A stretch of DNA of 5,118 nucleotides from a virus (Duplodnaviria > Heunggongvirae > Uroviricota > Caudoviricetes): the IMG/VR virus record IMGVR_UViG_2541047437_000023; one strand, written 5' to 3'. This document shows, one piece after another, positions 4,138 through 4,320 of the stretch; positions within the stretch are counted from its first letter, which is position 1; the number at the start of each line of letters is the position of its first letter. The notes under the pieces are model-generated. The model ran no database searches. It was not told the origin of the DNA and saw only the letters and a program-made list of their open reading frames with translations. The position numbers were made by a program, and so were the translations under genes.

Positions 4138-4320
4138 ATGAGATTTGTACAGCTTATTTTATTGTATTTCTGCACGGTGGTGTGCACGTTATATCTGGTA
4201 AGTGGCGGGTATAAGGTTATCCGGAACTATATACGCAAAAAGATTGATGCCGCGGCGGCGGAAAAAATCAGCGCCAGCCAGTCAGCCGGAACAAAACCCG
4301 AAGAGCCTCTCATTTCGTAG
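4138..4320 (+). CDS. Small single-pass membrane protein (60 aa), function unknown
   Basis: ATG 4138 is preceded by GGGAGGG (4128-4134). The N-terminus has a hydrophobic helix (FVQLILLYFCTVVCTLYLV) followed by a basic, then Ala/Ser-rich tail. There is no lipobox. Short length and lack of recognisable motifs keep confidence moderate. Confidence 0.45.
   Translation: MRFVQLILLYFCTVVCTLYLVSGGYKVIRNYIRKKIDAAAAEKISASQSAGTKPEEPLIS

Follow-up and report, generated by a model that had tools for sequence, protein, structure and literature searches.

The stretch of DNA analyzed here (the window) comprises 5,118 nucleotides, and the gene of interest belongs to a stx-negative lambdoid prophage of Escherichia coli O157:H7. 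The plus strand carries nanS-p, a gene for a small protein of the DUF1378 family, a DUF826 gene and the holin gene S, while a putative small-RNA (sRNA) gene lies on the minus strand between nanS-p and the DUF1378 gene (Table 1). The DUF1378 gene starts with ATG and encodes 60 amino acids (aa) followed by a stop codon. The first-pass annotation had described this ORF as having a good ribosome-binding site (RBS), one N-terminal transmembrane (TM) helix and a basic juxtamembrane segment, and all three features were recovered in the present analysis.

Table 1. Features of the window that bear on the DUF1378 gene, with their positions and the basis of each assignment.
Feature	Positions	Strand	Basis
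nanS-p, 645 aa (DUF1737 + SASA esterase + DUF6645), upstream neighbour	2053..3990	+	Pfam
PasC-like small-RNA gene (putative), divergent from DUF1378	3996..4111	-	conserved layout, fold, promoter geometry
Shine-Dalgarno (SD) element GGGAGGG	4128..4134	+	sequence inspection; GGAGG 4 bases 5' of ATG
DUF1378 CDS	4138..4320	+	Pfam PF07125, PHROG 494; identical to RefSeq WP_001213059.1
TM helix, residues 3-22 (FVQLILLYFCTVVCTLYLVS)	4144..4203	+	Kyte-Doolittle, alignments A1 and A2, AlphaFold2 (AF2)
G23-G24-Y25 boundary and basic amphipathic juxtamembrane helix (KVIRNYIRKKIDAAAAEK), predicted cytoplasmic	4204..4272	+	charge, moment, conservation
C-terminal tail, variable, low-complexity, S/T/P/E-rich, predicted disordered	4273..4317	+	subfamily comparison, pLDDT <55
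DUF826 gene, 89 aa, net charge -12	4358..4627	+	Pfam PF05696, E 1.2e-34
S, class II holin of the P21 type; opens the lysis cassette	4703..4918	+	Pfam PF04971, E 1e-32

The gene encodes a real, conserved, one-helix inner-membrane protein of a family that is already catalogued. Its product matched Pfam PF07125 (DUF1378) with an E-value of 5.8e-40 and 135.7 bits (cut-off 25), residues 1-59 being aligned with profile positions 1-59 of 59, which corresponds to the full length of the model. PHROG 494 was matched with an E-value of 1.7e-35, and the same protein is annotated in strain PV15-279 as 'DUF1378 family protein'. Membership was judged by a length of about 50-85 aa and an N-terminal TM helix with the conserved residues; the window protein has both, including all of the family residues L9, C12, T13, V15, C16, L20, G23, G24, Y25 and R29, and it shares with the family the TM motif LLYFCTxVC...SGGY, the length and the prophage setting. 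The earlier statement that nothing could be assigned from the sequence is thus fair with regard to function, but the 60-aa protein is not an orphan, because it is a textbook member of an existing DUF1378 / PHROG 494 / RefSeq family. This family is confined to prophages and phages of Enterobacterales (Escherichia/Shigella, Klebsiella, Erwinia and Mixta), and its members form 132 clusters at 90% identity and 19 clusters at 50% identity among 1.84 billion representatives. Viral-contig scans with the most distant members (P0131 and P0135) yielded no additional loci, and three apparent natural fusions (P0115, P0125 and P0220) proved to be frameshift or mis-call artefacts. A search of the NCBIfam models produced only noise and no characterised relative of DUF1378, and PDB sequence searches with the DUF1378 and DUF826 profiles gave nothing below an E-value of 0.6. 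In the literature, we found no functional study of DUF1378 (PF07125), the single mention being as a protein of 'unknown function', and none of DUF826 or the locus names L0106, vb_24B_23 and ECs1210/1211.

The anatomy of the protein is simple. Its 19-residue Kyte-Doolittle maximum, 2.28, is reached at residues 3-21, leaving an N-terminal flank of only 2-3 residues, and Leu, Val, Phe, Tyr and Cys abound in the TM segment, where L9, C12, T13, V15, C16 and L20 are conserved columns in alignments A1 and A2. In the same alignments G23, G24, Y25 and R29 are invariant or nearly invariant. Residues 23-40 carry a net charge of +4 and have a hydrophobic moment of up to 0.81. The tail has a net charge of -1 and differs in length and sequence among the subfamilies (44-84 aa). 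AF2, supplied with a 41-sequence alignment, predicted a single helix from residue 2 to residue 49 and a disordered tail (mean pLDDT 68), the TM part being modelled as helical with a pLDDT of 82-84. By the positive-inside rule we infer a bitopic inner-membrane protein with an N-out/C-in topology and a periplasmic N-terminus of 2-3 residues. We consider the identity and the anatomy described here as almost certainly correct. Since constraint falls on the TM residues and the juxtamembrane helix, the tail alone being free, the pattern is easier to reconcile with a specific contact inside the membrane than with a passive anchor.

The reading frame is under purifying selection. None of the 93 DUF1378 copies in the loci examined has a disrupted frame; each begins with ATG and is preceded by an SD-like element (GGAG, GGTAAG or AGGA). 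Of 5426 complete E. coli genomes, at least 1054 contain DNA resembling the window allele (median 3 copies, maximum 10). The pooled dN/dS ratio amounts to approximately 0.13 (246 unsaturated pairs); it is higher in the TM part (0.19) than in the juxtamembrane part (0.08). When the window allele is compared with that of Stx phages, synonymous sites prove saturated, yet the proteins are still 68% identical. The first-pass annotation had made its proposal depend on conservation and on translation. With respect to the former, the frame is kept in copies that are 34-98% identical. With respect to the latter, the DUF1378 gene of Sakai prophage Sp5, ECs1210, whose product is 68% identical to the window protein, passes the thresholds for translation of a published RIBOseq study (1 RPKM, 0.5 coverage and 0.25 RCV), with an RPKM of 22.5, a coverage of 0.85 and an RCV of 0.67 in LB (Hücker et al. 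2017; PMC5597208, S2 Table). In these uninduced cultures the RPKM of the downstream holin was 7.9, about threefold lower than that of ECs1210 (PMC5597208). It should be noted that the transcripts and footprints of this paralogue are confounded by an IS629 element located just upstream and by spontaneous induction, and the footprints from uninduced cultures do not give the timing or the promoter of expression.

These data also dispose of the idea that the ORF arose by chance, or that it appears conserved just through overlap with another gene, such as the over-extended DUF826 frame of phage 933W. The 933W reference records (NC_000924 and AF125520) could be taken to suggest this, since they lack a DUF1378 gene and instead list, in another frame, an overlapping 148-aa ORF (L0106 / ST933Wp43) in which DUF826 is over-extended; this is a point for their annotation. 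Its counterpart in the window would start with GTG and span positions 4202-4627. However, the Pfam DUF826 model begins at the Met of the short form (position 4358), Erwinia-type copies have no conserved upstream extension, and the DUF1378 family is also found where no DUF826 gene follows. In addition, a dN/dS ratio of 0.13 in the DUF1378 frame, despite saturated synonymous sites between alleles, and the RIBOseq coverage of ECs1210 argue against a chance ORF. Selection and context together rule out this possibility, to which we assign practically no probability.

In essentially all related lambdoid prophages of E. coli, nanS-p, DUF1378, DUF826 and the S holin gene occur in a fixed order, with DUF1378 located 380 nt upstream of S, and in essentially every Stx phage DUF1378 has the Shiga-toxin/nanS-p cargo on one side and the lysis cassette on the other. 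The first-pass annotation had seen the ORF as inserted between nanS-p and the lysis cassette. It does follow nanS-p in the late region, but it does not adjoin the cassette, because DUF826 intervenes before the holin gene; nor is it a one-off insertion, being part of the fixed four-gene block. DUF826 and DUF1378 are present in 307 and 309 phage records, respectively. The AF2 model of the DUF826 protein has helices at residues 10-17 and 20-49, the longer one with a pLDDT >90, and an acidic tail that is disordered. This acidic protein with its long helix (net charge -12) is encoded next to the basic DUF1378 (+4) in lambdoid as well as Mu-like phages. ECs1211, the DUF826 gene of Sakai, has been listed as growth-phase regulated in a microarray paper. 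The S21-type (P21-type) holin is found in 436 phage records, against 309 with DUF1378, which leaves roughly 127 without it, and the prophages PP2 and PP5 of enteropathogenic E. coli (EPEC) E2348/69 have kept nanS-p and lack DUF1378. DUF1378 is not needed for lysis, because it is absent from these records and from PP2 and PP5.

The surroundings of DUF1378 vary among phage types. A nanS-p-like gene lies directly 5' of it in lambdoid, Mu-like (loci L127 and L135) and P2-like (L131-L134) phages. In the P2-like prophages, nanS-p and DUF1378 come directly after the genes for holin, lysozyme, LysB and LysC. In Klebsiella-type prophages, which include records named Stenotrophomonas phage BUCT708/709 and 24 IMG/VR contigs, the order is S21-type holin, SAR lysozyme, Rz/Rz1 and then DUF1378, the ATG of which overlaps the Rz stop codon. 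One further locus (L004) has muramidase, DUF7940 and Rz/Rz1 genes before DUF1378, and its endolysin is without a SAR domain; in another (L005) DUF1378 follows the lysozyme gene after 19 nt, and a 75-aa acidic ORF 3' of it showed no similarity to DUF826 in hhalign and Pfam comparisons. Mu-like prophages of E. coli, Erwinia and Mixta carry DUF1378 at their right end, behind either gin or the tail-fibre assembly gene and distant from the lysis genes, and there it is paired with DUF826 in either gene order. SAR-like N-termini are a feature of the endolysins in the lambdoid, Klebsiella-type and P2-like contexts alike.

The small-RNA gene on the minus strand would be transcribed from a promoter with a -35 element TTGACA (4111-4106), a 17-nt spacer and a -10-like element TTAAAA (4088-4083). 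The predicted sRNA has its 5' end near position 4075 and a terminator hairpin at 4043-4003, followed by a U-tract at 4002-3996; its minimum free energy is -26.6 kcal/mol, with a z-score of -3.7 relative to shuffled sequences. Lambdoid, Mu-like and P2-like copies all keep this layout, with compensatory changes distinguishing their terminator stems. The gene shares position, strand, length and promoter geometry with that of the validated EPEC sRNA PasC. A search of positions 3900-4700 against Rfam at a lax threshold yielded only chance snoRNA matches. Complementarity of the predicted sRNA to the late transcript extends from about position 4075 leftwards, some 50 nt 5' of the SD element, and the sRNA overlaps neither the RBS nor the ORF.

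DUF1378 is a gene of the Q-dependent late operon, flanked by nanS-p on one side and by DUF826-S-R-Rz on the other. A crude consensus scan of positions 3800-5118 revealed no sigma-70-like promoter and no convincing plus-strand terminator between nanS-p and S. Two candidate signals were dismissed: a terminator-like hairpin at 4171-4186 within the ORF, the only such plus-strand match between nanS-p and S, looks like a by-product of two Cys codons (TGCAC...GTGCA), and the conserved TGTCAA and TTTTTAA blocks in the spacer between nanS-p and DUF1378 make sense only as a minus-strand promoter. In every context DUF1378 is co-directional with the late genes and tightly behind them, and to judge from the sequence it would seem to belong to the late transcript instead of forming an autonomous unit. 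A moron is an autonomous cargo transcription unit within the late operon that has its own promoter and terminator and is expressed from the repressed prophage. The proposal that the ORF occupies a moron site holds for its late-region position behind nanS-p, but with no promoter or terminator of its own in sight the term 'moron' is only loosely apt.

With regard to function, the first-pass annotation had likened the layout to that of small phage membrane proteins acting on lysis timing, superinfection exclusion or host membrane functions. The possibility that we tentatively put forward is that DUF1378 may be a non-essential membrane protein, expressed late, whose role would be to modulate the lysis phase. 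The protein would be produced late in lytic growth, and its conserved TM and juxtamembrane helices would dock onto a membrane partner. Since the family occurs with several types of holin, a single specific holin is a less likely candidate for this partner than the membrane itself or some conserved component of the host inner membrane. DUF1378 could then act as an accessory lysis-phase factor, for example by tuning the timing of membrane depolarisation and of SAR endolysin release, and the acidic helical DUF826 protein, where present, would be the probable cytoplasmic partner of the basic DUF1378 helix. The context data, with lysis genes beside DUF1378 in separate lineages and SAR-like endolysins in three of the contexts, appear to favour a role in the lysis phase only modestly. 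Adjacency to lysis genes is weak evidence, because such positions are also classic sites for cargo genes and morons, and the location of the Mu-like copies far from lysis genes and the L004 endolysin without a SAR domain count against such a role. Searches of Pfam and the PDB and hhalign comparisons revealed no similarity of DUF1378 to characterised lysis regulators. A bolder version, which we regard as a rather improbable conjecture, is that DUF1378, together with DUF826 where present, might constitute an unrecognised class of lysis-phase regulators in temperate enterobacterial phages with SAR endolysins; its conserved TM helix would set the time of depolarisation and hence of Shiga-toxin/NanS-p release, and the gene would have moved among lambdoid, Mu-like and P2-like phages in one mobile cassette with nanS-p and the PasC-like sRNA gene. 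If DUF1378 does affect lysis timing, this would bear on the amounts of toxin and esterase that an induced lysogen releases. The linkage to nanS-p in three phage types, the pairing with DUF826, the post-spanin position in Klebsiella-type prophages and the divergent PasC-like sRNA gene are leads that are cheap to test.

Other functions have to be weighed against a role in the lysis phase. DUF1378 might serve lysogenic conversion or superinfection exclusion, either by blocking incoming phage DNA or by altering a host membrane function, as HK97 gp15 and P22 SieA do; it would be produced from the prophage or in the course of lytic growth. Phage lambda carries bor after Rz. DUF1378 likewise occupies cargo positions, after nanS-p, Rz or a tail-fibre assembly gene, in five phage architectures; it is dispensable and patchily distributed, its conserved TM residues would suit the binding of a conserved host membrane protein, and the roughly threefold excess of the ECs1210 signal over the holin signal in uninduced Sakai points in the same direction. 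However, that signal may reflect spontaneous induction, multi-mapping among paralogues or read-out from IS629, and in the window the gene is neither preceded by a promoter-like site nor followed by a terminator. The position in the late operon, co-directional everywhere and overlapping the Rz stop codon in Klebsiella-type prophages, also speaks against this function, and comparison with the PADLOC defence models gave no match, a PtuB hit with an E-value of 0.039 being at chance level. We therefore regard an exclusion function as unlikely. It is more doubtful still that DUF1378 is an accessory of a mobile nanS-p cassette, either as a membrane tether or release aid for the esterase or as a mere co-traveller in a group of nanS-p, the PasC-like sRNA gene, DUF1378 and sometimes DUF826. 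The nanS-p-like gene directly upstream in three unrelated phage types, with a homologous nanS-p/DUF1378 intergenic region in all three, would agree with this, and the linkage is old, since the copies are just ~60-67% identical to the window protein. Yet linkage of adjacent cargo genes needs no functional tie, and each gene occurs without the other: DUF1378 without nanS-p in the Klebsiella-type, L004, L005 and Erwinia/Mixta prophages, and nanS-p without DUF1378 in PP2 and PP5. Moreover, the N-terminal domain of the esterase varies, with no DUF1737 match in the Mu-like locus L135 and a weak one in the P2-like copies.

The divergent sRNA gene also invites the view that DUF1378 is a toxin-like small membrane peptide held in check by an antisense PasC-like sRNA, or by the acidic DUF826 protein. 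In its size, in having one hydrophobic helix and in its charged C-terminus, the protein is reminiscent of type I toxins. The -35 element of the conserved sRNA gene is only 27 nt away from the start codon of DUF1378, and over its full length the sRNA is complementary to the late transcript just 5' of the RBS. In addition, the 3' end of nanS-p, the sRNA gene and DUF1378 move as a trio, and the adjacent DUF826 protein is of opposite charge. Nevertheless, we consider this very unlikely. The predicted 5' end of the sRNA lies short of the RBS and the coding region, the EPEC sRNAs PasA and PasC are abundant without DUF1378 and act in trans through Hfq, and DUF1378 is found without the sRNA gene in the Klebsiella-type, Erwinia-type, L004 and L005 contexts. 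Furthermore, the gene has a strong SD element and an operon position and lacks the long, structured 5' UTR that type I toxin genes usually have, and its product matched no toxin family in Pfam.

Among known systems, Mu gp25 reportedly acts as a 'releasin' (DUF2730; Chamblee et al. 2022): a small protein with a single TM segment, it releases the membrane-bound SAR endolysin. Like DUF1378, gp25 is small and single-pass, and it is encoded near the lysis genes of a phage with a SAR endolysin, which makes it a possible model for how DUF1378 might work. The two differ in that gp25 comprises 99 aa and in that DUF1378 of Mu-like prophages lies at the opposite end of the genome, and with hhalign probabilities of 0.2% to gp25 and 0.1% to gp24 DUF1378 is not a member of the releasins. 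Neither is it a class II holin, which would have two TM domains and a dual-start motif, since it has one hydrophobic segment and no holin family among its Pfam and PHROG matches, nor a SAR protein, since its strongly hydrophobic TM helix is not of the weakly hydrophobic Gly/Ala/Ser type that is able to leave the bilayer. Small proteins encoded in or beside lysis cassettes, such as S21-71 of phage 21 and RI and RIII of T4, tune the time at which holins trigger. Of these, S21-71 is made from the holin gene itself as an alternative product, RI possesses a domain in the periplasm, and RIII is a small cytoplasmic helical protein, which is loosely like DUF826. DUF1378, in contrast, has a stable TM helix and virtually no periplasmic part, and it shares no sequence similarity with these antiholins. 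The type I toxins TisB (with IstR-1) and ZorO (with OrzO) are accompanied by divergent antisense sRNAs, and the combination of a hydrophobic peptide of at most 60 aa and an sRNA gene just upstream is common to both settings; the sRNA beside DUF1378 covers neither RBS nor ORF, however, and exists independently as the trans-acting Hfq sRNAs PasA/PasC. AcrZ (49 aa) is a small bitopic regulator of membrane proteins, and HK97 gp15 and P22 SieA are phage exclusion proteins. The likeness of DUF1378 to AcrZ and HK97 gp15 consists in a single TM helix with conserved residues followed by a short amphipathic cytoplasmic helix, which would fit a helix-helix contact to a larger membrane protein; there is no homology, and unlike HK97 gp15, which the prophage expresses, DUF1378 has no visible promoter of its own. 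From its own family, Pfam DUF1378 / PHROG 494, the window protein differs in nothing: the gene itself is ordinary and already known, and what is new is the map of its genomic contexts.

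The small protein encoded between nanS-p and the lysis cassette matches the Pfam family DUF1378 (PF07125) end to end (E 5.8e-40) and also PHROG 494, a family without assigned function, and RefSeq holds its exact sequence as WP_001213059.1, 'DUF1378 family protein'. Its membership of DUF1378 holds on every testable criterion; the gene is real and already catalogued, and its novelty is low. The first-pass annotation had described an ORF with an ATG and a good RBS, one N-terminal transmembrane (TM) helix and a basic juxtamembrane segment, and each of these elements is borne out. 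A GGGAGGG box lies four bases 5' of the ATG, the Kyte-Doolittle mean over residues 3-21 is 2.28 (the usual threshold for a membrane span being 1.6), and the 18 residues after the TM segment, which are amphipathic, carry a net charge of +4, the final 20 residues being polar. AlphaFold2, run with 41 homologues, models residues 2-49 as a single helix and leaves the tail disordered (mean pLDDT 68). Under the positive-inside rule, the predicted topology is N-out/C-in, with almost no periplasmic part. Across the family, M1, L9, C12, T13, V15, C16, L20, G23, G24, Y25 and R29 are invariant or nearly so, C12 and C16 being spaced by one helical turn, and the E. coli members additionally conserve F11, Y10, Y19, S22, D37, A40, E42 and K43. 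Because the conserved residues fall there, the constraint is on the TM helix, the Gly-Gly-Tyr boundary and the basic helix; the C-terminal tail varies freely in length and composition, family members having 44-84 residues. That the TM helix is so conserved suggests that it makes a specific contact within the membrane and is more than a passive anchor.

The first-pass annotation had made the ORF stand or fall with its conservation and translation, and both are found. Of the 93 copies in the loci fetched first, every one has an intact frame, an ATG start and an SD-like element 5' of it. Nei-Gojobori dN/dS is 0.04-0.2 among unsaturated pairs and 0.13 when pooled over 246 pairs (TM part 0.19, juxtamembrane part 0.08); between the window allele and the Stx-phage allele synonymous sites are saturated and protein identity is 68%. 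Hücker et al. 2017 (PMC5597208, S2 Table) report ribosome footprints on a number of short annotated genes of Sakai, and one of these is the paralogue ECs1210 (ECs_1210, the DUF1378 copy of prophage Sp5, 68% identical to the window protein). In uninduced cultures, with reads possibly shared with paralogues and IS629 just 5' of the gene in Sp5, it clears every cut-off that this study sets for calling an ORF translated (minima of 1 RPKM, coverage 0.5 and RCV 0.25), both in LB (transcriptome RPKM 40.8, translatome RPKM 22.5, RCV 0.67, coverage 0.85) and in the BHI control (35.2, 14.9, 0.51 and 0.82, respectively) (PMC5597208). The footprints establish translation of the DUF1378 frame, and neither its timing nor its promoter.

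A word-indexed search of 5.8 billion proteins gave 132 clusters, of which nearly all come from E. coli or Shigella. When 1.84 billion cluster representatives were searched exhaustively with HMMER, only 19 clusters at 50% identity emerged, so the family is narrow. Distant members occur in Klebsiella pneumoniae, Erwinia tracheiphila, Mixta and 'Candidatus Erwinia dacicola'. Similar DNA is present in at least 1054 of 5426 complete E. coli genomes (median 3 copies, maximum 10), and all sampled rows of these matches are annotated as intact DUF1378 CDSs. The database protein entries P0115, P0125 and P0220 are frameshifted fusions, as expected in decaying prophages.

The window is the late region of an stx-negative lambdoid prophage and is 99.9% identical over 5118 bases to a prophage of E. 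coli O157:H7 strain PV15-279 (NZ_AP018488.1). STnc100 and AgvB form a convergent pair at the site of stxAB in Stx phages; Tree et al. in 2014 reportedly described such an sRNA arrangement at the moron site 3' of pR'. The stretch 1297-1529 holds two tRNA genes, against three (ileZ, argN, argO) in 933W and Sakai Sp5. The first is tRNA-Met(CAT) according to ARAGORN and tRNA-Ile in RefSeq, the latter call paralleling ileZ (anticodon cat) as annotated in Sakai Sp5, and the 80-nt spacer between the two (1373-1452) may be a decayed argN. In the PV15-279 prophage an IS1203/IS629-type element (11317-13163 of locus L001, 3' of the window) interrupts the endolysin gene, so that this prophage is probably lysis-defective; its DUF1378, DUF826 and holin genes are intact despite the split endolysin gene.

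Features of the window and their coordinates.
Feature	Position	Strand	Remarks
DNA methyltransferase gene	198-1256		
tRNA gene	1297-1372		
tRNA gene	1453-1529		
STnc100 sRNA	1639-1847	+	175 bits
AgvB (anti-GcvB) sRNA	1849-1908	-	56.6 bits, barely over threshold
nanS-p	2053-3990		DUF1737 + SASA + DUF6645
sRNA terminator hairpin, GC-rich	4043-4003	-	followed by U7 (4002-3996), abutting the nanS-p stop codon
sRNA -10-like hexamer	4088-4083	-	A/T-rich
sRNA -35 box	4111-4106	-	TTGACA, perfect; 17-nt spacer follows
DUF1378 ORF	4138-4320	+	
DUF826	4358-4627	+	
P21-type class II holin (S21)	4703-4918		
DUF1327/YdfR gene	from 4923		start only in window

The spacer between nanS-p and DUF1378, when aligned among lambdoid, Mu-like and P2-like copies, contains conserved non-coding blocks, which on the minus strand form an unannotated small-RNA gene (3996-4111), its RNA being predicted at about 80 nt. 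The hairpin arms (GCCGCCGG/CCGGCGGC, CCGCCAGCG/CGCTGGCGG, GCTCCCG/CGGGAGC and TCCCGCC/GGCGGGA) show compensatory changes between contexts, and the predicted folding energy of the window RNA is -26.6 kcal/mol (z -3.7 versus shuffles); this RNA belongs to no Rfam family. Its position, strand, size and promoter geometry are those of the EPEC sRNA PasC (NC_011601, 1290909 to 1290832, minus strand), the terminator of which abuts the esterase stop codon; PasA (NC_011601, 743499 to 743415) is a relative. We call the RNA PasC-like by position and architecture, not by sequence identity, because only 49 of 80 positions are identical to PasC. Both PasA and PasC are Northern-validated and Hfq-dependent, and the EHEC homologues EcOnc51/52 have been noted (PMC8550237 Table S6). 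In the window the element lies about 2150 bp from STnc100. The nanS-p/holin spacer of prophage PP2 of E2348/69 (locus L137, NC_011601 743266-743712) has neither DUF1378 nor DUF826 and contains two tandem minus-strand sRNA modules. One is PasA; the other combines a TTGACA-N17 promoter with a separate terminator beside the esterase stop codon, and it is at the terminator of this second module that the 'minor' 236-nt PasA species of the literature ends.

The DUF1378 gene lies within late operons, where its neighbours are often lysis genes, nanS-p and DUF826. The map of its contexts, in which seven gene arrangements were found, is new information and makes the function of DUF1378 cheap to test.

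Gene arrangements around DUF1378.
No.	Carriers	Gene order
1	E. coli lambdoid prophages, Stx phages	nanS-p, DUF1378, DUF826, S21 holin, (DUF1327), R, (ant), Rz
2	Klebsiella-type prophages	S21-type holin, SAR lysozyme, Rz/Rz1, DUF1378, tailspike
3	L004 (assembly GCA_963618645.1)	muramidase, DUF7940, Rz/Rz1, DUF1378 (84 aa)
4	L005 (short metagenomic contig)	lysozyme, DUF1378, 75-aa acidic ORF
5	P2-like E. coli prophages	gpX, holin, SAR-type lysozyme, LysB/LysC, nanS-p-like, DUF1378, gpR, gpS
6	Mu-like E. coli phages (L127, L135), tail-fibre genome end	nanS-p-like, DUF1378, DUF826
7	Mu-like Erwinia/Mixta prophages	tail fibre, assembly protein, (DUF826), DUF1378, convergent acetyltransferase

Arrangement 1 comprises about 80 loci, a few of which apparently lack nanS-p owing to contig ends or an insertion. 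Arrangement 2 was sampled from 24 IMG/VR contigs and the 'Stenotrophomonas phage BUCT708/709' records (prophages of 40-45 kb). One of these records, OM816835 ('Stenotrophomonas phage vB_SmeS_BUCT709', L002), contains an unannotated S21-type holin gene (3721-3936, +; PF04971, E 4e-21) and an unannotated embedded Rz1-like lipoprotein ORF (4697-4891). Its stated host merits a re-check, because Klebsiella pneumoniae genomes (88 contigs) encode near-identical DUF1378 proteins. In arrangement 6 the nanS-p-like gene is preceded by gin (L127) or a tail-fibre assembly gene (L135), the DUF826 copy is only 51% identical to that of the window, and in L127 a com-like ORF and a DNA methyltransferase gene follow it. 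In arrangement 7 the order of DUF826 (Pfam, E 1e-27) and DUF1378 is reversed. Seven Erwinia/Mixta-type loci (L006-L009, L119-L121) lack the nanS-p acetyl-esterase and carry an acetyltransferase-like (hexapeptide-repeat) gene on the opposite strand, about 70-730 nt 3' of DUF1378; an acetyl-transfer/acetyl-esterase theme recurs beside DUF1378, which may be coincidence.

The associations with lysis cassettes (arrangements 1-5), nanS-p (1, 5 and 6) and DUF826 (1, 6 and 7) are none of them obligatory. DUF1378 has 309 records in the phage collection, DUF826 307 and the S21-type holin 436, most DUF1378 and DUF826 records being related Stx phages; from 436 versus 309, some 127 phages, including phi80, mEp332 and ev207, have this holin without DUF1378. 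Prophages PP2 and PP5 of EPEC E2348/69 keep nanS-p and lack both DUF1378 and DUF826. DUF1378 is therefore an accessory gene, neither a core lysis function nor an esterase requirement.

DUF826 is a candidate partner. Its model consists of a short helix, a 30-residue helix (pLDDT above 90) and a disordered acidic tail. Among 20 aligned E. coli/Shigella homologues the helical core LEARLDAEVDAILDELLG is almost invariant, and the last residues of the Pro/Glu-rich tail are nearly always MMM or MML. DUF826 carries a net charge of -12 versus +4 for DUF1378, and on the models a contact between basic and acidic helices is plausible. A 141-aa GTG ORF (4202-4627, +) extends DUF826 5' and overlaps DUF1378 in a different reading frame. 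In the 933W reference records it is this over-long ORF (L0106/ST933Wp43; 4308-4754 of locus L093) that is annotated, and DUF1378 is missing, which looks like an annotation error worth correcting.

A consensus scan found no sigma-70-like promoter in window 3800-5118, and the only plus-strand terminator-like match from nanS-p to S, at 4171-4186 inside the ORF, looks like a by-product of two Cys codons. Since DUF1378 is also co-directional with the late genes and close behind them in all contexts, it would belong to the late transcript. In the DUF826-S spacer (4628-4702, +), a GC hairpin (AGGGGC...GCCCCT) precedes a T-rich stretch.

DUF1378 is a conserved, selected and translated small membrane protein, predicted to be bitopic. 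While the observation of the first-pass annotation is thus confirmed, its interpretation, which spoke of lysis timing, superinfection exclusion or host membrane functions, is supported only in part. Our tentative proposal is that DUF1378 may be a dispensable modulator that works at the cytoplasmic membrane during the terminal phase of infection. Four points favour this: separate lineages repeatedly place the gene beside lysis cassettes, in Klebsiella-type prophages its ATG and the Rz stop codon overlap, its carriers mostly use SAR endolysins, and it has the expression signals of a late gene. Against this stand the Mu-like contexts, in which lysis genes are far away, the additional use of sites beside lysis cassettes for cargo, and one carrier with an endolysin that lacks a SAR domain. 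A role in superinfection exclusion or conversion is rather unlikely; no defence model matches DUF1378. An accessory role in the nanS-p cassette we regard as more doubtful still, and a toxin-like peptide, checked by DUF826 or by the sRNA (which overlaps neither the DUF1378 RBS nor the ORF), as quite improbable. That there is no gene here is scarcely conceivable, and the remaining probability goes to something else.

A holin was rejected, the protein having one TM segment and no HMM match, as were a SAR protein, the TM segment being too hydrophobic, and a relative of the Mu releasin gp25 (hhalign probability 0.2%). We found no solved structural relative of DUF1378. Its architecture resembles that of small TM regulators such as AcrZ and of small phage exclusion proteins, a likeness that we take as a lead only.
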